A DNA stretch of 34,489 nt from a virus (taxonomy: Duplodnaviria > Heunggongvirae > Uroviricota > Caudoviricetes). Where the stretch lies: the IMG/VR virus record IMGVR_UViG_2541047695_000003; one strand, 5' to 3'. A model generated the notes under the pieces. That model had not been told where the DNA came from. It did not search any database and saw nothing but the letters and a program-made list of their open reading frames with translations. Of this stretch, positions 1-33,551 are shown piece after piece. The first letter of the stretch is position 1. Every line of letters begins with the position of its first letter. Position numbers and translations under genes: made by a program.

Positions 1-51
1 AAATTAGATACTAAATATATACGTGAAGGATGTTGAGCTGGTCAACGTCTA

Positions 52-81
52 CGGGGGAGAACATCCCCCGCTAACCTTTTT
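52..81 (+). terminator. Hairpin CGGGGG-agaacat-CCCCCG with a T-run a few nt downstream; possible terminator of a gene ending just inside the window
   Basis: Inverted repeat 52-57/65-70 read directly; T5 at 77-81; frame-1 stop codon at 34-36. Confidence 0.4.
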
Positions 82-100
82 CTTATTTGAGGATTTACCT

Positions 101-202
101 ATGGTTGAATTTTTGATTTATCTGGCTGTAGGATTAACTATCGTATATTCACTGGCACATATTGGCATTTCTACTTTGTGTAACGCTTTCAAGTATCATT
201 AA
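101..202 (+). CDS. Hydrophobic micro-protein, 33 aa, one predicted TM helix
   Basis: ATG 101 with GAGGA about 8 nt upstream; hand translation MVEFLIYLAVGLTIVYSLAHIGISTLCNAFKYH, TAA at 200-202; below the 60-aa cut-off of the ORF track. Confidence 0.45.
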   Translation: MVEFLIYLAVGLTIVYSLAHIGISTLCNAFKYH

Positions 203-255
203 TTAAATCGATGAATTGAACTATAGATGATGGTCGTTTTCAAAGAGGATTATCT

Positions 256-429
256 ATGGATCTTTTTGTCTACTTTGCTACTCTGCTGTTTTTGACTATC
301 GTCGCTGGCATTAAATTGATTTTTATATCGCTGGTGGTATTTTTCAAATTTCTAATCGGTACGCCTTACGGCTGGGTATGTTTAATCCTGTTTATTCTTT
401 TTAGTTGCTGTAAATCAGACACTAAATAA
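256..429 (+). CDS. Small membrane protein, 57 aa, two hydrophobic segments
   Basis: ATG 256 with AGAGGA upstream; hand translation MDLFVYFATLLFLTIVAGIKLIFISLVVFFKFLIGTPYGWVCLILFILFSCCKSDTK, TAA 427-429. Confidence 0.5.
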   Translation: MDLFVYFATLLFLTIVAGIKLIFISLVVFFKFLIGTPYGWVCLILFILFSCCKSDTK

Positions 430-590
430 TATTGTAATCTGCCTTTTCTCCTTATGTGGTTTTAACAGGGAATTTTCGAAAGAGAGTTCCCGATTAAAAG
501 CCATTAAAACACACTCCAGTACAGTGTTTTCATAGTCAGTGATCTATACAACACAAAAACATAACAAGTATAGATTGAGTATTAATCCTC

Positions 591-616
591 CCGCCCCGAA
601 GGGGGCGGTTATTTTT
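591..616 (+). terminator. Rho-independent terminator
   Basis: CCGCCCC-GAAG-GGGGCGG followed by TTATTTTT. Confidence 0.75.
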
Positions 617-693
617 CTGGCTTTAAAGAATAATGTAGCATTATGTTCATTATAACCTCATCTTTGTTGTGCAAACCTAACCTAAACTTACTA

Positions 694-717
694 GGGACTC
701 TTCGGAGTCCCTTTTTT
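694..717. terminator. Terminator hairpin shared by converging transcription
   Basis: GGGACTC-TTCG-GAGTCCC followed by T6 on the + strand; abuts the stop codon (716-718) of the minus-strand gene. Confidence 0.7.
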
Positions 718-1660
718 ATTGGCAGTAAGAAAAGTTAGTACCGTACATTTCATCATGAAGCATTGCAACATTGCGTTTCTGTTCTTCTTCCTCGTCTACC
801 GCATCACTAGAAAAATGAGATTTGCCCTTAAAAGAACGAAGCAATTGCAGTGCAGCCATCGGATCACGCATCACATCGATTTTCACTTCTACTTCATCAT
901 TTGCGGCCTCATCAGCCGCATTTTCAACTACTGCCACCGGAGCAACTTCTTTAGCTTTCAGTTCTTCAATCTCAGCTTTCTGTGCTTCGATGATCTGGTC
1001 TTTTTCTTTCAGTGCAGCTTTCAGTTCTGCGATCTGTGCTTCCAGTGCAGAGAAACGATCTTCAACAGCAACCGGAGAAACAGCATTAACCTGTGCTTCC
1101 AGTTCTACGAAAGCGTCGCAAGATTCAATACGTGCTTTTTCTTCACCTTCATATGCAACCAGTTCTACTACTTCTTTCTCAGTAGCGTGGCTGTTAAAGA
1201 ATACAGCAAAGTAAGGATTGCCGGATTTGGTGAAGTTCAGTTTAGCTTTTCCGGTAACTTCTTTACGACGACCAAAGGTAATGTTGCAATCAGCGGTATC
1301 CTGAAAATCCATGTTAGGAGCGGAAACGATAGCAGTATCACCAGCAATCACTAGGTGGAACAGTTCAGAAGAGTTCTTAACGGTGAAAGTAACGATGTGG
1401 TCTACTGCAACGTCTTTAGCAGGTTTAACGCGGTCGATTGCTTTACGAATGCCGTTAGGCAGTTTACCGTCAACACCAAAGCCAGCCGCGATCAGTGCTT
1501 CACGATGTGCTTTAAAGCCAGCGAAAGCGGATTTCTGCTGCGCAAAGGAAACATGAGCAACAACTTTCGGCTGAATCTTCTTGTTTGCTTCGGTGCCAAA
1601 TTTGATAACTGCTTTAGCGTTGGTTACTTCGTTAGTGAAAAAGTTAGCGGAAAATAACAT
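716..1660 (-). CDS. Abundant early protein: beta-rich N-domain, central coiled coil, acidic C-terminal region; function unknown (ssDNA-binding or annealing role is a guess)
   Basis: 314-aa ORF, GGAG SD 8 nt upstream, strongly optimised codons (cgt, ggt, ctg, gaa), heptad-like AQIAELKAALKEKDQIIEAQKAEIEELKAKE, acidic DAVDEEEEQ. Confidence 0.9.
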   Translation of the reverse strand: MLFSANFFTNEVTNAKAVIKFGTEANKKIQPKVVAHVSFAQQKSAFAGFKAHREALIAAGFGVDGKLPNGIRKAIDRVKPAKDVAVDHIVTFTVKNSSELFHLVIAGDTAIVSAPNMDFQDTADCNITFGRRKEVTGKAKLNFTKSGNPYFAVFFNSHATEKEVVELVAYEGEEKARIESCDAFVELEAQVNAVSPVAVEDRFSALEAQIAELKAALKEKDQIIEAQKAEIEELKAKEVAPVAVVENAADEAANDEVEVKIDVMRDPMAALQLLRSFKGKSHFSSDAVDEEEEQKRNVAMLHDEMYGTNFSYCQ

Positions 1661-1703
1661 TATAAATACTCCTGTGGAAAGTTAGTTTTAATTGTTCATT
1701 TCA

Positions 1704-1740
1704 AGCCTCCTTTGCTGCAACAAGGGAGGCTTTTTCTTTT
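1704..1740 (+). terminator. + strand intrinsic terminator lying between two minus-strand genes
   Basis: AGCCTCC...GGAGGCT stem followed by TTTTTCTTTT on the + strand only. Confidence 0.55.
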
Positions 1741-1774
1741 TTAAAGCCATCATATAATTCTCAGTGAAAGTGGA

Positions 1775-1954
1775 TTAACAAACTTGAACGTTAATCTTTA
1801 CCTGAATTTCGTATTTCTTCATTAGCTTGTAGAATCCGCTTCTATCAATTCCTTCCTTCTTAAAGAAGTTTTCCCCGCCTCGCTCAGTGTCGCTGTAAAA
1901 GCGTTTAGCAATATCAACAATCATTTCACGAGTGAACTTAACAGGTCTAGCCAT
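1775..1954 (-). CDS. Small HTH DNA-binding protein, paralog A (Hin/excisionase-like)
   Basis: ATG at 1954 (MARPVKF...) with GAGGA SD; the 1969 start in the ORF track is a TTG; shares RPxKF...IA..Y...GI...FYK.MKK..I with 5372-5605 and both halves of 5634-6239. Confidence 0.8.
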   Translation of the reverse strand: MARPVKFTREMIVDIAKRFYSDTERGGENFFKKEGIDRSGFYKLMKKYEIQVKINVQVC

Positions 1955-2049
1955 AAGTAGATTCCTCAAATGTGGATTAATAAGGACAATAAAAAGAGCT
2001 TTTCGCCCTCGATACTTCTATTTATAAAAGTCATTTCAGAAAACCCTGC

Positions 2050-2075
2050 AAAACCACTGTGTATCTGATCAGTGG
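2050..2075 (-). promoter_or_regulatory. Dyad site O1: CCACTG-N10-CAGTGG followed by TTTT on the minus strand (operator or weak terminator)
   Basis: Arms 2054-2059/2070-2075; spacer 7/10 identical to the second site. Confidence 0.45.
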
Positions 2076-2133
2076 GAGCACGAATTGCTAAAGAGAAGAT
2101 TAATTATTAATCAATTCGTACAATATTCAACCG

Positions 2134-2160
2134 AAAAAGCACTGTATATCTAACCAGTGC
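2134..2160 (-). promoter_or_regulatory. Dyad site O2: GCACTG-N10-CAGTGC followed by TTTTT on the minus strand
   Basis: Arms 2139-2144/2155-2160; same architecture and spacer as O1, 85 bp away. Confidence 0.45.
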
Positions 2161-2296
2161 TGTATGAATTAGCAGTGAATCAGGAGATTTTCAGAAGTGA
2201 ACAATCATTTCACACATGTATTTATAACGTGGAAATTCTTGCTTATCATCTATATGGGGACTGTTTAGAAAATTTCAACCCCCACCAGTGAGAAAA

Positions 2297-2325
2297 AGTA
2301 TAAAATAATCCTTGACAGTTGTCAA
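2297..2325 (-). promoter_or_regulatory. Strong sigma70-type leftward promoter
   Basis: Minus strand TTGACA (2325-2320), 17 nt spacer, TATACT (2302-2297); the -35 is half of the dyad TTGACAgtTGTCAA at 2312-2325. Confidence 0.6.
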
Positions 2326-2443
2326 TGCACTTGACCTAAGCGAGAAATGACTATCAAAATTTTTGTTTGAAAATGGTAGATCAGGATTATCAACCTTTAT
2401 AACCTATTATAGCGCGGAGACCTTTTGACAATTCTTTTTAAAT

Positions 2444-2768
2444 CATTAACTTACGCCACTTTTTGGTGATTTTTTGATTAAATAATATACAAGAATTTTC
2501 TATCAAAATATTTGATGGGAATTGCCCCTGAAATTCTGAATTTTTGCCCCCGAATAAAATCCCCAAGATTCTACTATCCCATTTTTGCCCCTGAAACCTA
2601 CTATTTTTGCCCCTGAAATTCTGGGAAACAGTGATTTTGCCCCTCATTTTTGCCCCTGAAATGCCAATAATTGCCCCTGAAAATCTAATTTTTGCCCCTC
2701 ATTTTTGCCCCTGAAAAGGATTGGTGAGAAAAACCCTTTATAAAACATTAACTTAGCGAGGGGCAAAA
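2444..2768. repeat. Iteron array: 9 direct copies plus 1 inverted copy of TTTTGCCCCT(G/C)A
   Basis: GCCCC cores start at 2524, 2546, 2587, 2609, 2639, 2652, 2673, 2694, 2707; inverted copy AGGGGCAAAA at 2759-2768; perfect 27-mer TTTTGCCCCTCATTTTTGCCCCTGAAA at 2635-2661 and 2690-2716; bracketed by CATTAACTTA at 2444-2453 and 2746-2755. Confidence 0.9.
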
Positions 2769-2786
2769 GCGGGGGATCGGGCGTGC
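2756..2786. other. GC-rich island next to the last iteron; candidate cohesive-end (cosN-like) site
   Basis: GCGAGGGGCAAAAGCGGGGGATCGGGCGTGC inside otherwise AT-rich non-coding DNA; the terminase is GpA (cos) type. Confidence 0.25.
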
Positions 2787-2858
2787 ATAGATATTATATA
2801 ACACATTCGCTACGCTCATGTGTAAAACTAAAAACAACAAATAACCAAAAAGATAATT

Positions 2859-2878
2859 AGGAGGGCGTAGCCCGACTG
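2859..2878 (+). repeat. Left copy of a 20-nt direct repeat AGGAGGGC-nnn-GCCCGACTG
   Basis: AGGAGGGCGTAGCCCGACTG; differs from the right copy only in the 3 central nt of the GGGC/GCCC dyad. Confidence 0.7.
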
Positions 2879-2920
2879 CGCGAAGCGCTAACCAATTACT
2901 TCTAGTAACAACTAATTTAA

Positions 2921-2939
2921 ACTAGATGATACTAGATGG
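2921..2939 (+). repeat. CTAG-rich repeat ACTAGATGATACTAGATGG
   Basis: Near-identical to 3123-3140; further CTAG motifs at about 2901, 2956, 3057 and 3074. Confidence 0.6.
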
Positions 2940-3122
2940 TCTTAGAAGGAATTAACTAGTTTGCTCGCTCGCTTCGCTCACTCTCAAACGTCTGCGACGC
3001 CACTGCGTGGCATCGAGAATCACTTCTGAAAGGATTTTCTCGAAAGGGATTTAATACTAGTTACTAACTGATTCTAGAAAGATAGTAATAATCACTTTGA
3101 AGATAATAGTAGTTAACTGGTT

Positions 3123-3140
3123 ACTAGATGATTCTAGATC
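3123..3140 (+). repeat. CTAG-rich repeat ACTAGATGATTCTAGATC
   Basis: Second copy of the 2921-2939 motif; followed by ATCACTT, which also occurs at about 3020 and 3091. Confidence 0.6.
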
Positions 3141-3167
3141 ACTTTAATGATCATGAAAGGTATTGGT

Positions 3168-3197
3168 ATCCCTTCGGGATTGCAACCTTCGGTTGCT
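3168..3197 (+). other. Two abutting UUCG-capped stem-loops (candidate structured RNA or processing site)
   Basis: ATCCC-TTCG-GGGAT (3168-3181) immediately followed by GCAACC-TTCG-GGTTGC (3182-3197); no U-tract after either. Confidence 0.5.
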
Positions 3198-3289
3198 AAA
3201 TTGCTTCCTGATTATTATTTCTCCAAAAGAAAGATTATTATATTCTAAAGATACTTCTTCGTTTTGATCATAATTTAATCAAATCATGA

Positions 3290-3309
3290 AGGAGGGCTTT
3301 GCCCGACTG
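3290..3309 (+). repeat. Right copy of the 20-nt direct repeat
   Basis: AGGAGGGCTTTGCCCGACTG, 431 bp downstream of the left copy. Confidence 0.7.
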
Positions 3310-3346
3310 AATACAATCACCTTTCATAATAACAAGAATTTTCTCT

Positions 3347-3378
3347 TTATAAATAATAGTGAACTTACTTGATTCACT
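3347..3378 (+). promoter_or_regulatory. TTATAAATA box plus AGTGAA...TTCACT leader hairpin upstream of the first rightward gene
   Basis: TTATAAATA 3347-3355, AGTGAA 3358-3363, TTCACT 3373-3378; near-identical arrangement at 30229-30268. Confidence 0.5.
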
Positions 3379-3398
3379 TTCTTTTAGAGGATACCACT

Positions 3399-3848
3399 AT
3401 GATCAATACTAAAACTCCTTTCGTACTTCTGGGTCTGGACTCTGAAAACTATGGTAACTTCCATATGCTAGAAGTTTTCGCTCATCGTGGTTATAACATC
3501 ATTCGTCATTCCGAAGACTCCAACTACTCAACTGCTTTCTACGCTTTAAAACGAAATGGTCGTCCTACTGTGATCATCGACTGTTTTACTGATGAGGGTC
3601 GTCTTCAATACAACGATATTCCAGCAATTATTGTTCGTGATGATCTGCCGTTTCAAGTCCGTTCCGGTGACATTGACCTGGGTAGCTTCTTGACTCTTCG
3701 TGAACTGGATGAAGCAATGTTTAATTACGGTAAAGAAACCGCTCAGGAAGCCCCAGAACAAGATGAGGAAGACGAAGACTACGCACCAATCGCTTTCTCT
3801 TCTCACGGTGGCTTCTACGGTTACGACGAAGGCTTAGATATGCTGTAA
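3399..3848 (+). CDS. Acidic early protein, 149 aa, unknown function
   Basis: ATG 3399 with AGAGGA SD (the 3369 start in the track is TTG); optimised codons; 28 D+E against 11 K+R; tail EAPEQDEEDEDYAPIAFSSHGGFYGYDEGLDML. Confidence 0.85.
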   Translation: MINTKTPFVLLGLDSENYGNFHMLEVFAHRGYNIIRHSEDSNYSTAFYALKRNGRPTVIIDCFTDEGRLQYNDIPAIIVRDDLPFQVRSGDIDLGSFLTLRELDEAMFNYGKETAQEAPEQDEEDEDYAPIAFSSHGGFYGYDEGLDML

Positions 3849-3883
3849 GTTAGGTCAACCCTTTGGCATCTTGTCAAGGGGTA

Positions 3884-3912
3884 TTGACAAAAATTTCTGA
3901 CTTTTTTATGAT
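3884..3912 (+). promoter_or_regulatory. Sigma70-type promoter
   Basis: TTGACA (3884-3889), 17 nt spacer, TATGAT (3907-3912); a second TTGACA at 3921-3926 lacks a good -10. Confidence 0.6.
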
Positions 3913-3968
3913 TATCGAACTTGACAACTTTGAACCTATTTGACCTAGATTTGTAAAGAGGATGTAAC

Positions 3969-4301
3969 ATGAAAGAATTTACCATCACTAAATCCCTGTA
4001 TGACTGGACTGTTAAAATCTCCGGCAAAACCGTTTCTGTAACCCCTAGCCATGTAGAAAATGATTGGGGCGTATCCCGTGAAACTATCTCCCGTAGTATG
4101 CATGTTCCGTTTGATCTGATGACCTTAACTGGTATTCATGCAATGCTGGAAGTTCGCGAGCAATTCGAAGCTGGTAATCACAATGCAACTCCAGTTAGCA
4201 ATCACCTTCTTACTAATGAAGAACGTGAAATCATCGAAAACTGGCGTTATGAATATGCGATTCCTTATTATGAAGAAGACCAAGTAGAAATCGATTGGTG
4301 A
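3969..4301 (+). CDS. Hypothetical early protein, 110 aa
   Basis: ORF with AAGAGGA SD; no motif recognised. Confidence 0.8.
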   Translation: MKEFTITKSLYDWTVKISGKTVSVTPSHVENDWGVSRETISRSMHVPFDLMTLTGIHAMLEVREQFEAGNHNATPVSNHLLTNEEREIIENWRYEYAIPYYEEDQVEIDW

Positions 4302-4311
4302 TAAATTTCTA

Positions 4312-4347
4312 TTATAAATAAAATTGTTCCGGTTGAGATGCCGGAAC
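4312..4347 (+). promoter_or_regulatory. TTATAAATA box followed by GTTCCGG...CCGGAAC hairpin
   Basis: TTATAAATA 4312-4320; stem 4326-4332/4341-4347; an orphan AGGAGG follows with no start codon at the right spacing. Confidence 0.45.
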
Positions 4348-4389
4348 TAGGAGGATCAATCACTAAACCGTTTAAGGGGAATTAATACT

Positions 4390-5196
4390 ATGAATACTGT
4401 TACCGTTATGAATACTGCTAAAACTGCTTCCGTGTCTCTGGTTGTTGATAACACCAAACCGCTGACCATGTCTTCCCGTCAGATCGCTGAATTTACCGGA
4501 AAGAAACACTTTCACGTAAAACGCGACATTCGCGAAATGCTGATTACCTTAGAATTAGATGAATCCAAATTTGGATGCATCTTTTTTGACCAATATGGAC
4601 GCGAGCAAACAGAATATCACTTGAATGAAGAACTGACTCTGACTCTTGTCACTGGTTACAATATCCAGATGCGAAACGCGGTTATTCAGGAATGGAAGCG
4701 ACTGAAAGAAGAAAATGAAAAACTTCGCTCTACTCCGGTTAACCCGTATGCAGACTTTGAAGAAACAGACTGGATCGAACTGGCATTAAAGAAAACTCGC
4801 GAAAATAAAAAGCTGATTGAACTTCATGTTCGCAAATCCGTAGATAGCCATTCAATGACGCGTCTGTTAGGCGCTAAAAAGGGCGCTACGAAGGTTAAAG
4901 AAGCACTGACGGCCTTACGTACTGCTGGATACATCGAGCGCGTCTATGATGAAAATAACAAGCCGTGTGGGTATGTTGCTAATGATTCTTCTCTCTCTTT
5001 CTGCCGCATGAATGCTCACTACCAACTTGAGTTTACTGTTGATGTGCTTCCGGTGCTGGTTGAATTGGGTGTTTTGGAAGAAGAACAAAAAGCAACTCTG
5101 AATCTTCCTAAGCCGAACAACACTATTCTGATTCAAAATAAAGCGGCTGAACGTCTCCGTCAGAATGTTGGATCACTGGAAGTCTTCGGACTGTAA
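4390..5196 (+). CDS. rha: Rha-family phage regulatory protein with a C-terminal extension
   Basis: N-terminal LTMSSRQIAEFTGKKHFHVKRDIREML matches the Rha-domain pattern as I recall it; AAGGGGA SD. Confidence 0.7.
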   Translation: MNTVTVMNTAKTASVSLVVDNTKPLTMSSRQIAEFTGKKHFHVKRDIREMLITLELDESKFGCIFFDQYGREQTEYHLNEELTLTLVTGYNIQMRNAVIQEWKRLKEENEKLRSTPVNPYADFEETDWIELALKKTRENKKLIELHVRKSVDSHSMTRLLGAKKGATKVKEALTALRTAGYIERVYDENNKPCGYVANDSSLSFCRMNAHYQLEFTVDVLPVLVELGVLEEEQKATLNLPKPNNTILIQNKAAERLRQNVGSLEVFGL

Positions 5197-5202
5197 TTAA
5201 TC

Positions 5203-5236
5203 GCCCGGCGCATAATTGCGCTGGGCTTTTTGTTTT
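5203..5236 (+). terminator. Rho-independent terminator of the rightward early unit
   Basis: GCCCGGCGC-ATAATT-GCGCTGGGC followed by TTTTTGTTTTT. Confidence 0.8.
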
Positions 5237-5332
5237 TATAGATAACAGCATTTTTGCTGGCATCTATAGATCAGTCCAGATTTGGACTCAACTTAGAAAT
5301 GAGCGCAGTTTTGCGCCGATTGTTTTACATAC

Positions 5333-5356
5333 AAAAAAGCCACTCCGAAGAGTGGC
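5333..5356 (-). terminator. Rho-independent terminator of the minus-strand HTH operon
   Basis: GCCACTC-CGAA-GAGTGGC preceded by A6 on the + strand, which is T6 after the stem on the minus strand. Confidence 0.75.
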
Positions 5357-5371
5357 AAAGAGAATCAAAAC

Positions 5372-5605
5372 TCAAAAACCTGTTGCTTCTACGATCTGAC
5401 CATCACCGATCTGAACATAGAATTTAATGTCTAACTTCTTCATATTCTTATAGAATTGGGCAATTGAAATCCCATGTTCACTAAGAATCTGTTCTTTCGC
5501 TTCCTTACCACGATCCGCTGTATAATAAGCGTAGGCAATATCAGCCATTTGTTCAGCGTTAAAACGGGCAGGACGACCGCGAGTAGCTTTAGTAGTCATA
5601 GTCAT
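5372..5605 (-). CDS. Small HTH DNA-binding protein, paralog B
   Basis: TRGRPARFNAEQMADIA...GISIAQFYKNMKKLDIKFYVQIGDGQIV; GGAGA SD fits the third-codon ATG (5599) better than 5605. Confidence 0.8.
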   Translation of the reverse strand: MTMTTKATRGRPARFNAEQMADIAYAYYTADRGKEAKEQILSEHGISIAQFYKNMKKLDIKFYVQIGDGQIVEATGF

Positions 5606-5616
5606 TTCTCCAAATT

Positions 5617-5634
5617 AAAGTGAATGTTCACTTT
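5617..5634. promoter_or_regulatory. 18-bp palindrome AAAGTGAAtgTTCACTTT between the two HTH genes
   Basis: Perfect 8-bp arms with a 2-nt centre, so too tight for a full-length RNA hairpin; same GTGAA/TTCAC arms as the leader hairpins. Confidence 0.5.
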
Positions 5635-6239
5635 TATTTAGAGGACTTACATTTTATCGGAAAAAGTTCTCCATCGTCAATACTCATAAAGAACTCTGCC
5701 TTAATCCCGTACTTCTTCAACCGTGAATAGTATGTACCCCGACTTATATCAACCTTGCGCAGCACTTCAAAGAACCCTTTAGGATCGTTGTAATAGTGGC
5801 TGTATCGCACGTTAGCGAGTTCTACAAACAATTCCCTTGTATCACCATAGCCTTTCTTGAAAGCCTCGTTACGATAGCGTGTAATAGCGTGATTCAATCT
5901 CTTCTGTTTCAACACTTCTCGGATCGGCTTCCACTGCAACCTATAGATAGGACCGTCATCAATGCGATAATAACGCTTGATATCAAAATCAAACCAATCT
6001 CGGACTCGCTGAAACTCTGTCTGTGAGGTGCGATACTTCTTAAAGAAGTTATGAATATCGGTATACCCATGATCACGATACAACTCGATTAAAATCTGTT
6101 TAGCTTCCTCACGACTAAAGCCAGATGTTGTGTAATCAGTCTTCTTGTGATGGTGCTTAACTGGCAAACGATATTCATGATCGGTACAACAAGAAAAGGC
6201 TAATTCTACTTCATCTCTTTGTTGCTGATTAATTAGCAT
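5634..6239 (-). CDS. Tandem double-HTH DNA-binding protein, paralog C (two modules)
   Basis: 201 aa; each half repeats the paralog pattern ([12 protein letters not shown]...[10 protein letters not shown] and [26 protein letters not shown]); AAGGGGG SD; divergent from the large terminase. Confidence 0.85.
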
Positions 6240-6326
6240 ACAACCCCCTTAAATATTAATACCCGTATTTATCAAAATATCAACAATTTAATAAATACCT
6301 TCATATTTCGTAATGAGGGTAATTAC

Positions 6327-8234
6327 ATGAAACTAATTTCTAATAAGGCCAAATTAAAAAAGATTCTCAGAAATGCAGCCAAATATATTACGCCACCGCC
6401 TAAACTCCTTCCATCGGAATGGTGCGAAGCTAATATGGTGCTGGTAGATGGTCCTCAAGCTGGGGATAAAGTTAAATTGCTGTCATTCCAGAAAGGTATG
6501 ATTGATGCTCCTTTCCTTGAGAACAAGAAAAAGTATGTTCTGATGACCAGTGCGCAGATCGGAAAGACTACCATCCTGAACGGCATCCTGTTTAACCAGA
6601 TGGCTAACGATCCATGCAATATGATTATCGGACAATCAACCGCTAAAGAAATGTCTCAATATCTCGCTGGTAAGATCCGACCGTCTATCGAAGCATGTGA
6701 TGCATTAAAAGACGTGGTTACAGACAAGAATGATCGCAATGCGGTTAACAACAATAACCAACTCCAGCTAAAAACGAATCACTTCCTGTACATGGTATCG
6801 CTTACCAGTCCATCAACCCTGCGCGGTAAGACTGCAAAGGTCGGACTACTAGACGAAATCGATGCTGCTACAGCCTCAGAAGAAGGTGATCCGGTGGCAC
6901 TGGCTGCTAACCGTTTAACTACCTTTGGCGATGAAGGCCGATTAGTCGTATCCAGTACCCCGACCAGTAAGCTCGGAAGCATTAACCAGCAATGGTTATC
7001 AAGCGATATGCGTATGTTTTTTGTTCCGTGTCCTCATTGCGGGGAACACCAGGTGATCGAGTGGGAAAACGTTCAATTTGAATGGCGTAACATCGATGGT
7101 AAGAACTTACCCGATCCTGATACCGCTCGTTATATTTGCCCCCACTGTAAGAACGCATGGACAGAAGGGGAACGAATCAGGGCAGTAGCGCAAGGCGAGT
7201 GGAGAGCAACCCGTGAAAGTGAAGTAGCAGGATTCTGGATTAGCCGTCTGTATTCACCTTTCAGCACGATCCGCGCTTGTGTGGTTGATTTTAGTCATGC
7301 GTGGCAATCCTTTGATTTACAATCATTTTATAACACCGTGTTAGGCAAGGTATACGATGATCAGGACACGGCAGTAGAAGCAAATGAACTGGAACAACTC
7401 AAAACAGATGTTTCTATCGAGAATATCCCTGATGACGTGATTTTCTTGTGCTCAGGAATTGACCAGCAATTGGATCGCGCAGAATCTACCATCTTAGGTG
7501 TAGCGAAAGATAAGGTTTACATTCTGGATCACCGTAGCTTTTACGATCATAACTGTGAACGATACGAATCACCTGTATGGGATCGTCTGGTTAACTTCAA
7601 GAAAACCAAATTCTATAACGTTAATGGTGAACGTGTGCCAATGCTCGCCAGCTTCCTCGATACATCAAACGGTCGATTCACTCAAGCCGGATACCGTATT
7701 TGTGGTAAGTGGAAGAACCTACACGCTATTAAAGGTAGTTCATCTGGTAATGCTCCAGTGATTCCGGTTAAACCTACCCGCACAGGTGGTCATGAATTGC
7801 TTATGCTGGGCGTTAACGTTGGTAAATCCGCTGTTCGTGAAATGCTGGTTAGAAACCTGAAAGATAATCCTCATATTGGCTTAGAAATATCAGAAACCGT
7901 TCCTGATGATTATCTCGATCAGCTTTTGAGTGAATCCATCAAGCGTACTACTACTGGTGTTCGTTGGGTGAAAAATCCAGGTAGTACCCGAAACGAGGCT
8001 CTCGACTGTCTGGTTTATAGCTATGCTGCTTCTCGCTACGTCCTTTCAAAAATGTCATGGGATAAACTCATTGCAATGAAAGACAGCTTAAACAGCGTTA
8101 AAGAAGAACCCGTAAAAGCTCCTGAATCGCAATCTGACGAGCAAATCGAAGAAACTAAGCCAATCACACGACCGCAACGTCAAAACATCGCCAGACGCCC
8201 AAATAGAGGCCGTAGCTGGGTAACATCGTTCTAA
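6327..8234 (+). CDS. terL: Terminase large subunit, GpA (lambda A) family
   Basis: 635 aa; Walker A-like [10 protein letters not shown]; zinc-ribbon CPHCGEHQ...CPHCKNAW; position ahead of the portal. Confidence 0.95.
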
Positions 8235-31343: not shown

Positions 31344-33023
31344 TTAAATTCCAAATTCCTGTAATGGACCTGGTATTTCCTCTTCTGGTTTCCAGTTCTT
31401 ATCTGTCAGCATGTCTAAACATGGATGCAGAACAAGCCCGTTGCTCTCCAGAATCTGCCTATCATTGATAGTTTTCAAATCAATGAATATCCGGCCTTTC
31501 CTCGTTCCTCTTGAATTTTCTATTACAACTCTCTGGGTCTTTCCATCGATGTATTCCAGCACAAACAAGTTTTTATTTCTGTCAATCCTGCTACACCCGA
31601 TCCGCTTTAGAGCTTGCTTAATCTTAAACCGGACCTTTAGTCGTTCCTCGTTATAAACATCTTCTAAATCAAATTCTGCGAGCTTCTCCCAGCCTTGAGA
31701 GTCCACAGAATACATTTCCTCTTCTGCCATCTTGATCTGATTGTAGAGTGTTTCACGCTCGCTATTGAGGGTAGTAATCTGATCGGCTAGCTCCTTCGTT
31801 GCTCCTGTCATAGCAGAAAGGGCAATCAGGTTATCAATCTTGCGTGATATTTCATCAACCTGTACTTTCAACGCCGGAACCGGATTAGCCTTGTCCTCAG
31901 CAATCCATATTTTATCAGCCAGCAATTGCAATACAGCTTTCTCTAATTGATCACCTCGAAAACTCCAGTTTGGATGCTCGCAATCAAGTCTACGTGAACG
32001 GGTCGCATCACATGTATAACGATACTGGTCAGAACGTTTGTTCGTTCCCTTCACTTTAACCATAGCGCAACCGCAATGATCACATTTCAATAGGCCAATA
32101 CCACTAAGCAGGGGGATCGGTTTAACTTCTTCCTTGTCTCCAAAGTTCCATGCTCTAGCACCAATATTTTTCTTAAGGTGATAGAACGTAGCATCATCAA
32201 TAACACGAGGGTAATAATCCTTTAACTCATAGTTAACACCATCTACAGAGACTTCCTTGATACCAATCAAAGCGCGGGTATGGAACAACCTTTCAACCAT
32301 TGCCCGTGACCATTTTGAATGCTTCTTGTTGCTTACTGCTGGTGGCGGTGTATATGTCTCGTTAAGGTGATCCAGTATCTCGGCGGTTGAACGTCCATTC
32401 TTCCGTAATTCCACAATCTCCTGAACAACAGGGAAGTATGTAGGATGAGGCAACACATAACCGGAAGTGGTATCCGTCCACCACATATTCTTTCCAACTT
32501 CCTCGATTGCCACTGCCGGATTCTGGGGATTTTCTTGATGGGCTTTAATCTTAATCAGTGCGCTTGAGTTAGTACGATTGCGCTTAGTCTGGCTTTCCTC
32601 ATTACCACGGATGAATAAAAGGATGGAGAACATCAGGTCCATCGGGTTAGCGGTAACAGTATCCAGCGAGTAGATCTTGTTATCCATGCCAGTAACAATG
32701 GTTATTCCCCTACGGATGATTGAAAGGAATAACTCCTGCGCACTGACAATATCGGCACGGGATAAGCGGTCCAAGTTTTCAATGAATAGCCAGCTACCAA
32801 CAGGAACGGATCTACCAATTGCATCAAGGAAACGAGATAGCGCCCCTGTTTTAGAGTTAGCACCCTTAAACGCAGATACACCCAGATCCTGATAATCATT
32901 TACCAGTTCAAGGTCATACTTTGCCGCAACCTCTCTCGCCATCCTGATTTGTCGTTCATAACTCGAACCATCATTCTGACGCATAGACGAGAAGCGAATA
33001 TACGAATACAGTTTAGTTTTCAT
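31344..33023 (-). CDS. int: Large serine recombinase (integrase)
   Basis: KLYSYIRFSSMRQNDGSSYERQ catalytic Ser motif, recombinase domain, zinc ribbon CDHCGC...YTCD...CEHP, C-terminal coiled coil; ATG 33023 preferred over the TTG at 33038. Confidence 0.95.
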   Translation of the reverse strand: MKTKLYSYIRFSSMRQNDGSSYERQIRMAREVAAKYDLELVNDYQDLGVSAFKGANSKTGALSRFLDAIGRSVPVGSWLFIENLDRLSRADIVSAQELFLSIIRRGITIVTGMDNKIYSLDTVTANPMDLMFSILLFIRGNEESQTKRNRTNSSALIKIKAHQENPQNPAVAIEEVGKNMWWTDTTSGYVLPHPTYFPVVQEIVELRKNGRSTAEILDHLNETYTPPPAVSNKKHSKWSRAMVERLFHTRALIGIKEVSVDGVNYELKDYYPRVIDDATFYHLKKNIGARAWNFGDKEEVKPIPLLSGIGLLKCDHCGCAMVKVKGTNKRSDQYRYTCDATRSRRLDCEHPNWSFRGDQLEKAVLQLLADKIWIAEDKANPVPALKVQVDEISRKIDNLIALSAMTGATKELADQITTLNSERETLYNQIKMAEEEMYSVDSQGWEKLAEFDLEDVYNEERLKVRFKIKQALKRIGCSRIDRNKNLFVLEYIDGKTQRVVIENSRGTRKGRIFIDLKTINDRQILESNGLVLHPCLDMLTDKNWKPEEEIPGPLQEFGI

Positions 33024-33036
33024 ACCATTTCCAAAC

Positions 33037-33072
33037 AAAAACGCCCCTACCGCGTATTATAACGATAGGGGC
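33037..33072 (-). terminator. Terminator of the secreted-protein gene, with a TATAAT inside its loop
   Basis: Minus strand GCCCCTA-16 nt-TAGGGGC-G-TTTTT; the loop contains TATAAT (33061-33056). Confidence 0.6.
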
Positions 33073-33506: not shown

Positions 33507-33551
33507 AGTAGAATTTCCTCTTGTTATTTGAATTACGATATATTTATATCG

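Follow-up and report, generated by a model that had tools for sequence, protein, structure and literature searches.

The window analysed here is a 34.5-kb stretch of DNA (IMG/VR record IMGVR_UViG_2541047695_000003) that holds most of the genome of a temperate tailed phage with a GC content of about 41%, and our subject is the leader between its strong leftward promoter, P-left, and the first leftward gene. Within this leader lie two near-identical 22-bp dyads. We think it probable, if far from assured, that these dyads, above all dyad 2 together with a third site that overlaps it (box 3), are operators of the host SOS repressor LexA, carried in a cassette that is exchangeable among related phages.

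In the mechanism that we propose, dyad 2 and the overlapping box 3 would form a tandem LexA operator, with dyad 1, 85 bp off, as a weak auxiliary box, and all three would belong to one exchangeable regulatory cassette that separates P-left from the first gene of the leftward operon. As long as the DNA of the lysogen is undamaged, LexA bound to the cassette would hold down transcription across it; upon DNA damage, RecA-stimulated cleavage of LexA would free the cassette and thereby render the early module SOS-inducible. This module would comprise a leftward 59-amino-acid (59-aa) helix-turn-helix (HTH) protein and a 314-aa protein, and/or a rightward transcript running towards a set of iterons and a Rha-type gene. 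LexA occupancy, the promoter under control and its direction, and the link to induction are the parts of this scheme that we infer.

Match to LexA boxes and identity of the host

The observations that carry this reading are the match of the dyads to the LexA box, the rarity of that match, its pattern of conservation, the independence of the cassette from neighbouring phage genes, and the identity of the host. The original prediction had placed the two dyads at 2054-2075 and 2139-2160, with conserved spacers and a run of T after each on the minus strand, all of which was borne out. Dyad 1 (2054-2075) reads CCACTG-N10-CAGTGG and dyad 2 (2139-2160) reads GCACTG-N10-CAGTGC, with the 20-mer CACTGTATATCTAACCAGTG at 2140-2159; their spacers agree at 7 of 10 positions, and on the minus strand dyad 2 is followed by T5 (2138-2134) and dyad 1 by TTTTGCAGGGTTTT, with T4 at 2053-2050. 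Exact matches to CACTG-N10-CAGTG number two in 34.5 kb, and allowing up to one mismatch yields three against 0.50 expected. Box 3 (TGCTGTATGAATTAGCAGTG, 2158-2177), which overlaps dyad 2 by 2 nt, is a third CTG-N10-CAG site that was absent from the original prediction, and the three sites in the window that resemble CTGT-N8-ACAG at one mismatch are clustered at 2057-2175.

The SOS box of E. coli has the consensus TACTG(TA)5CAGTA (PMC6590174). Dyad 2, box 3 and dyad 1 all share the form of such boxes, a 20-bp imperfect palindrome with CTG-N10-CAG and an A/T-rich centre. We scored them by a heterology index (HI), using a Berg-von Hippel matrix derived from the 18 E. coli boxes in Table 4 of PMC3009722; the training boxes themselves span HI 0.3-9.3, or 0.6-12.8 when each is left out in turn. 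With an HI of 4.84, dyad 2 is a strong match that falls within the range of known boxes, among those of recA, lexA and sulA, and it is identical to the dinB box CACTGTATACTTTACCAGTG at 17 of 20 positions, differing at 3. None of 500 Markov-random sequences of 34.5 kb contained a site at HI 4.84 (0.4% did at HI 7), and the next best site in the window stands at 10.5. Box 3 is weak to medium (10.9 in the window, and a borderline 7.4-12.3 in relatives, with CAG changed to CGG in some lineages), and dyad 1 is weak (13.4 in the window and 10.9-11.6 in relatives, borderline to outside the range of known boxes).

Dyad 2 thus resembles the SOS boxes of E. coli, such as those of dinB and the colicins, in being a 20-bp palindrome with CTG-N10-CAG and an A/T-rich spacer. 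The likeness to colicin operators goes further, since double overlapping LexA boxes are their hallmark (PMC2994835) and box 3 overlaps dyad 2 as a second box. On the other hand, the boxes of the prophage differ from E. coli SOS boxes in lying in a leader, far from the strongest promoter, and in having an extra weak box 85 bp away. A literature search for the dyad as a string gave no match.

The host is E. coli or Shigella. The 314-aa protein is encoded in assemblies of both, the region is matched in 58 of 5426 complete E. coli genomes (about 1%), chromosomal every time, and the leader of locus L022 (GCA_000456305.1) is identical to that of the window. For instance, strain 23CRST001 carries a prophage of about 37 kb that interrupts ycdX. 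An E. coli host fixes the set of host regulators that have to be considered, and it possesses a LexA that recognises this motif.

Exchange of the cassette among relatives

Relatives were drawn from IMG/VR and from E. coli genomes, and their leaders split into two types: type A, the type of the window, has the dyads, while type B, found in about two thirds or more of the related phages, has neither dyads nor any LexA-like box. The sole block common to both is the 17-mer CTTTAGCAATTCGTGCT (2093-2077, minus strand). Instead of dyads, type B has tandem TTGACA promoters and runs of TAACA direct repeats. Its tandem consensus promoters (loci L002-L013, L027 and L047) consist of TTGACA-17-TATACT overlapping TTGACA-18-TATAAT; five (A/T)TAACA(C/T) direct repeats, spaced by 8-11 nt, stand beside the conserved 17-mer, and an inverted cluster of TGTTA(T/A) lies about 200 nt upstream. 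LexA-like sites outside the type A leader are scarce. The rest of a type A prophage has no further site at HI <=11.5, a whole type B prophage has one (HI 11.44, inside the gene for the 314-aa protein), and a further 667 kb of phage DNA held 10 sites at HI <=9, 7 of which are the same leader position in more relatives.

The cassette is not tied to the genes beside it. Next to type A leaders the adjacent 59-aa HTH gene comes in four allele classes, of which one is identical to the allele of dyad-less type B phages, and in L026 a type A leader is joined to another iteron family and, in place of the 314-aa protein, to an unrelated protein of 331 aa. No early gene within 6 kb tracks the leader type, and no regulator gene lies inside the dyad cassette. 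Because the cassette recombines freely with HTH alleles and with iteron/protein sets, a neighbouring gene is unlikely to encode the factor that reads the dyads; judging by these combinations, this factor is probably a host protein and not one of the HTH paralogues of the phage. The original prediction had held operators to be likelier than RNA structures, which we can support, and had looked to a phage repressor or the HTH paralogues for the binder, which we cannot support, since the cassette is independent of the HTH alleles and fits a host LexA box.

It is for these reasons improbable, in our view, that the dyads are operators of a phage-encoded dimeric repressor or activator, be it a small HTH or another early protein, that might loop the intervening 85 bp. 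Such a protein would account for 22-bp sites that are near-identical and perfectly symmetric at 6+6 positions, and for dyad centres that lie 84-86 bp apart, or about eight helical turns, in every variant; several uncharacterised small proteins that look DNA-binding are also encoded nearby. However, it would have to serve a cassette found with all four HTH alleles, including the type B one, and with two unrelated sets of iterons and associated protein. Furthermore, the dyad is found nowhere else in the prophage, whereas several operator sets are usual for a phage repressor, and the variation in the outer arms is easier to reconcile with LexA than with a protein that recognises all 6 bp of the arm.

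Conservation has to be read with care. A comparison in which the dyad arms varied at 0 of 24 positions, against 68 of 263 in the rest of the leader (p = 0.002), was dropped because the alignment of 16 type A leaders behind it was biased, having been selected in part by the dyad pattern or by an anchor containing CCCACTG. We replaced it with 18 distinct leaders anchored solely on the neighbouring 17-mer. In this set neither dyad shows any change in its CTG or CAG, every spacer measures 10 nt, and the arm substitutions, four in number, are confined to box positions 1-2 or 19-20. Hairpin pairing is broken by three of them and none of the four is compensated, and one of these three, CAGTG to CAGTA, brings the site nearer to the LexA consensus (HI 6.66 to 5.56). 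In the tandem pair of dyad 2 and box 3, at least one box stands at HI <=8.4 across variants. Which of the two is the stronger varies, the weakness or loss of one usually going with greater strength of the other, although four variants have both at 8.3-9.8. Such a pattern, as far as sequence variation can tell, is what one would expect from a LexA operator and not from a hairpin.

The same data bear on the possibility that the dyads are a functionless, duplicated relic, kept only because the leader at large is conserved. Conservation among relatives reaches about 90% over the full leader, so that invariance alone says little, and part of the set of relatives was chosen by the dyad pattern itself. 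Nevertheless, an HI of 4.84 is very unlikely to arise by chance, the CTG and CAG stay invariant in the independently anchored set while neighbouring bases vary, and the strengths of the tandem boxes compensate for each other. We consider a relic very improbable.

Promoter geometry and RNA structure of the leader

If LexA does bind the cassette, the question is which promoter it would control. The consensus leftward promoter of the original prediction is present: P-left (2297-2325, minus strand) consists of TTGACA (2325-2320), a 17-nt spacer and TATACT (2302-2297), matching the consensus at 11 of 12 positions, and in 16 relatives its -35 is invariant and its -10 nearly so. The leader, said to be about 340 nt long, measures about 336 nt from an inferred start near 2290 to the ATG of the 59-aa gene at 1954. 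The picture of one promoter firing through this leader was nonetheless incomplete, as the leader also contains a sigma-32-type promoter, an internal sigma-70-like promoter and a rightward repeat of the kind known from T1-like phages. The internal sigma-70-like promoter (2103-2130, minus strand) is formed by TTGAAT, 16 nt and AATAAT (9 of 12 positions). Its -35 is invariant in relatives except L046 (TTAAAT), its -10 reads AATAAT or AATTAT, and the conserved 17-mer begins about 3 nt beyond its inferred start. A candidate rightward -10, by inference only, is the TACAAT at 2118-2123 of the plus strand; in 16 relatives the element reads TACAAT in 7, TACATT in 8 and TGCAGT in 1.

The -35 of P-left is also one arm of a perfect palindrome, TTGACA-GT-TGTCAA (2312-2325), whose arms are kept in relatives while its 2-nt centre varies; it could be an operator or a back-to-back pair of -35 elements. 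It is followed by a rightward TTGACC-18-CAAAAT (2331-2360) and then by a weak terminator-like hairpin (2454-2468).

Set against these promoters, several points weigh against control by LexA. For P-left, whose start is inferred at about 2290, the boxes would be at +114 to +236, an unusual geometry for repression, and no clearly strong promoter overlaps them. With respect to the leftward TTGAAT-16-AATAAT, the dyads lie at about -63 to -44 and +23 to +42 of the start and so flank it without covering it, and the rightward TACAAT element lacks a -35 and reads TGCAGT in one relative. Dyad 1 scores poorly as a box (HI 10.9-13.4), and its perfect dyad symmetry exceeds what LexA needs. The spacers drift by transitions at the TATAT positions that LexA prefers, so that dyad 2 weakens to HI 6.7-9.6 in part of the lineages. 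Two facts would fit an RNA hairpin, namely the covariation of the seventh pair in the dyad 2 stem and the T-run after each dyad. Finally, the value of 4.84 for dyad 2, like every other HI given here, comes from a home-built matrix and not from that of Lewis 1994, and absolute values are only roughly comparable with published thresholds. The arrangement that looks most like a known SOS promoter is the rightward one: relative to the inferred start for TACAAT, the tandem boxes would occupy about +11 to +48, the classical SOS position; we give this option some weight because the T1-type repeat there faces right.

The hairpin-like features deserve a hearing of their own. The dyads might act in the leftward RNA as weak terminators or attenuators, in series with a hairpin at the end of the leader, so that read-through from the strong P-left and sigma-32 promoters would be limited unless an antitermination factor acts. 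We regard this as rather unlikely, and it could coexist with LexA binding: every good LexA box is a hairpin too, and the dyads may play both roles. The original prediction had thought RNA structures less likely on the grounds that the stems are weak, and they turned out not to be as weak as assumed, with -10.1 kcal/mol for dyad 2 (7 pairs, z -3.3) and -9.6 kcal/mol for dyad 1 (z -0.7). The terminal hairpin, GAGGGC-GAAAA-GCTCTT (2010-1994) followed by T5 (1989-2010 in all, minus strand; -7.6 kcal/mol), lies just upstream of the ribosome-binding site and has the features that a terminator scan calls. One of its pairs is A-U in 8 relatives and G-U in 8, which works in the minus-strand RNA alone, and type B leaders have, at this position, another sequence that takes the same shape. 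The terminal hairpin therefore looks like a real RNA element.

What speaks for an RNA role of the dyads, then, is this series of three hairpins, each followed by a T-run, together with the changes in the terminal one and a leader that as a whole (347 nt) folds better than its shuffles (z -2.7). In addition, the pair just outside the 22-bp dyad, the seventh of dyad 2, covaries (A-U in 10, G-U in 1, G-C in 3) by way of a G-U intermediate that works on the minus-strand RNA only, and a boxA-like TTCTCTTTAGCAA precedes dyad 1. Yet intrinsic terminators have a GC-rich stem, a loop of about 3-8 nt and a U-tract of at least 6, whereas the dyads have 10-nt loops and U-runs of 4-5 nt; the clear terminators of this phage, with loops of 4-6 nt and longer GC stems, are unlike them, and the terminator scan made no call at either. 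The three uncompensated arm substitutions in the unbiased set stand against a single covarying pair, for which the shuffle control is weak, as 5 of 500 shuffles reached its score and relatedness alone can give that. The match of TTCTCTTTAGCAA to rrn boxA (11 of 13 positions) is at chance level, 1 found against 1.43 expected, and we rejected it, the T1-type repeat being a better explanation of these bases; for the related question of a lambda-type nut site, which calls for a short boxB hairpin within about 10 nt of boxA and for an N-like protein, such a protein was looked for through Pfam and PHROG scans only. A scan of positions 1-6400 against Rfam matched no family, and an RNA-only model leaves unexplained both the LexA spacing and the CTGTAT half-site in the loops.

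LexA operators in the leader would not be without precedent. LexA-controlled antirepressor genes are found in phage 186 (tum), the Gifsy phages and N15 (antC), and rstA of CTXphi is LexA-controlled as well. The prophage in the window shares with such phages a temperate lifestyle, the lack of a recognisable cleavable CI repressor and host LexA boxes in the early control region, so that induction would be read from the SOS state of the host. It differs in that its regulated proteins are orphans, in that Pfam and PHROG scans detected no gp7-like or Tum-like protein, and in that most of its relatives carry a leader free of LexA boxes; phage GIL01, for comparison, is controlled by host LexA plus gp7 (PMC4551915). 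LexA boxes in prophage control regions are hence an already known kind of element, of which the window, by analogy, would be a further case.

Further signals of the leader and the surrounding prophage

Just downstream of P-left, an apparent GGGG...CCCC hairpin is in fact GTTGAA-N14-CCCCATAT, a predicted sigma-32 (RpoH)-type promoter (2252-2279, minus strand; GTTGAA at 2279-2274, CCCCATAT at 2259-2252). It fits the consensus CTTGAA-N13-17-CCCCATNT as quoted in PMC4263515, and the core pattern TTGAAA-N12-15-CCCCAT has one match in the window against 0.03 expected. The element was found in 25 of 28 loci and in both leader types at different positions, namely just downstream of the sigma-70 consensus promoter in type A and just before the gene in type B. 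It resembles the sigma-32 heat-shock promoters of E. coli in sequence, and is conserved across both leader types, but differs from them in its place, a phage early leader.

Between the dyads, the shared 17-mer reads AGCACGAATTGCTAAAG on the plus strand (2077-2093) and is an exact core copy of a repeat of T1-like coliphages. This 21-nt intergenic direct repeat, aaATAGCACnnnTTGnTAAAA, has been described for TLS, T1, Rtp and Rogue1, its function being unknown and left by the authors as an open question (PMC11447400). An exact-match scan with the 17-mer returned 82 IMG/VR stretches, many of them multi-copy contigs of 41-52 kb, one of which is the T1-like virulent Shigella phage Sf12. Sf12 has 10 copies at <=3 mismatches against 0.15 expected, each just past the end of a gene and reading AGCACGAATTGCTAAAG in the direction of that gene, followed by 19-20 nt, TATNNT, 6 nt, ATCGAAAC, a ribosome-binding site and ATG. 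The window copy, ggGAGCACGAATTGCTAAAG, has a core 17-mer identical to those of Sf12 and of many T1-like copies, an exact 'G-type' copy, and has not kept the 5' AAAT.

The context of the repeat is where the window departs from T1-like phages. Their repeat follows a gene end and precedes a start codon by about 76 nt, with TATNNT 19-20 nt downstream. In the window the rightward order is repeat, 24 nt, TACAAT, attcaACCGAAAAAGCA, which resembles the T1 arrangement, and then the LexA boxes, with no conserved open reading frame (ORF) after it. The only ORF there, of 22-23 hydrophobic codons and starting with GTG at 2197 (plus strand) after AGGAG, had been a candidate for a TisB-like LexA-controlled toxin; we rejected it, as its frame is broken by insertions of 1-2 nt in L001, L014, L038 and L039. 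The carrier, moreover, is a temperate phage with no detectable protein in common with Sf12: the early prophage proteins found no match there, and the shared repeat is therefore not explained by a shared phage DNA-binding protein. Type B leaders have two repeats, one G-type and one T-type, and from the latter it is exactly 19 nt to TATGAA, on the other strand. A literature search for the 17-mer as a string gave no match, and as far as could be found this is the first sighting of the T1-like 21-nt repeat outside T1-like phages.

The original prediction had also pointed to two TTATAAATA boxes on the minus strand of the leader. Both exist, box 1 at 2219-2227, where TATAAATA is kept in 14 of 16 relatives and ACTAAATA stands in 2, and box 2 at 2019-2027, invariant in all 16; they are not special to the leader, given 6 exact copies of TTATAAATA in the window against 0.71 expected. 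The GTGAA/TTCAC hairpin that had been noted near box 1 exists as an inverted repeat (2197-2213, minus strand). As a feature it was rejected, since its -3.1 kcal/mol (z -0.2) is no better than that of shuffles and its outer pair is broken in 12 of 16 relatives; it is probably not functional.

The underlying octamer, TATAAATA, occurs seven times in the window, always in intergenic DNA (0.88 expected in 3.9 kb). Six of the seven copies face what comes next: the HTH, 149-aa, Rha, 332-aa and lipoprotein genes and, in the case of box 1, the leader itself. Most have an inverted repeat within 2-8 nt after them and none has a -35. Further copies stand upstream of genes at 3348, 4313 and 30230 (plus strand; inverted repeats AGTGAA-N9-TTCACT, GTTCCGG-N8-CCGGAAC and AGTGAAT-N17-ATTCACT, respectively) and at 33548 (minus strand, inside a palindrome of its own). 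Another, at 1661-1668 (plus strand), overlaps the start codon of the 314-aa gene, and about 35 nt downstream of it lies a strong plus-strand terminator (1703-1732, a 12-bp stem plus T-run); the two could delimit an RNA of about 70 nt that is antisense to the ribosome-binding site of that gene. In type B, one copy is fused to the sigma-32 -10 (CCCCATATAAATA). The octamer is identical to the core of T4 late promoters and, like it, stands without a -35 in intergenic DNA, mostly facing the next gene; it differs in preceding early and accessory rather than structural genes. No gp55-like sigma was found among the early-region proteins with the sigma and late-transcription families of Pfam and PHROG. 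In place of a T4-type late promoter, which would pair the octamer with a gp55-type sigma, we treat the enriched boxes as promoter-like elements, a phage-wide intergenic motif.

The leftward operon begins with the gene for the 59-aa protein (1775-1954, minus strand), predicted to be a three-helix, HTH-like protein; its model is a three-helix bundle with a predicted local distance difference test score (pLDDT) of 64, and a Foldseek search against the Protein Data Bank (PDB) gave nothing significant. It is one of three paralogous small proteins encoded on the minus strand (1775-1954, 5372-5605 and 5634-6239) with the common C-terminal motif G(I/V)(D/S)xxxFYxxxKKxxI and an N-terminus (RGRPxxF or ARPVKF) that presumably resembles Hin/resolvase-type HTH domains; none of the three has a Pfam match. 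The second gene (716-1660, minus strand) encodes the 314-aa orphan, with a beta-rich N-terminal domain, a coiled coil and an acidic tail. It has no match in Pfam, PHROGs or PDB sequences, nor by tblastn in phage records, its family has only 11 members among 1.84 billion representative proteins, and its single-sequence AlphaFold model is poor (pLDDT 43). The iteron (T)TTTTGCCCCTGAAA occurs in nine direct copies at 2522-2716 (plus strand) and one inverted copy at 2766 (minus strand). In L026 another iteron family, TAGTGTAGGTTT, co-occurs with the unrelated 331-aa protein, which has the layout of the 314-aa protein, and since iterons and protein are swapped together, the 314-aa protein may be an iteron-binding, perhaps replication, protein.

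Farther right, a non-coding stretch (2860-3310) has eight CTAG within 2902-3134, the window overall holding 50 against 127 expected, and is bracketed by a 19-nt direct repeat, GGAGGGC(G/T)T(A/T)GCCCGACTG, at 2860 and 3291; it may be a site bound by proteins, for instance for packaging or as an origin. The window also encodes a lambda-type gpA terminase (6327-8234; best match at 43% identity), beside which no small terminase gene is recognisable, a large serine recombinase that serves as integrase (31344-33038, minus strand), a portal, a protease-capsid fusion, a J-type tail tip protein and a Rha-family protein, the last being the sole match to an annotated family among the early-region proteins. 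Across the prophage family (the whole window, L023 and L028) there are no recognisable replication genes and no CI-type repressor, and the only lysis-related annotation, in relatives, is a gene for a D-Ala-D-Ala carboxypeptidase-family metallohydrolase. The cargo near the integrase varies by copy: some encode a GIY-YIG nuclease plus a DEAD-box helicase, and the window has a lipoprotein gene among others. When phage and plasmid collections were searched for near-identical DNA, no cultured phage or plasmid record came close to the region, a one-per-species genome scan found no relative of the region, and a literature search on a prophage at ycdX gave nothing relevant. This is a widespread, undescribed family of E. 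coli and Shigella prophages.

Our results also raise a broader and more speculative reading, to which we assign a low probability: the leader as a whole may be a modular stress-sensing switch, in which mostly host-read signals are arranged around the rightward T1-type repeat, an element that virulent T1-like phages have ahead of many genes. These signals may comprise the sigma-70 consensus and sigma-32 promoters, the LexA boxes in one type of cassette and the TAACA direct repeats in the other. If so, the T1 repeat would be read by a host factor or by RNA polymerase itself, and the prophage would offer a simple genetic system for finding the function of this repeat. A more daring version is that the prophage may sense superinfection by T1-like phages through it. 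The sigma-32-type promoter and the T1-type repeat are in any case more unusual than the dyads and may matter more.

As for the dyads, if LexA does occupy the cassette, this prophage family would read the SOS state from the repressor of its host and not from a cleavable repressor of its own. Given that the SOS cassette is exchangeable and that sister phages carry another cassette at the same place, the family would then represent a natural experiment on the swapping of induction signals.

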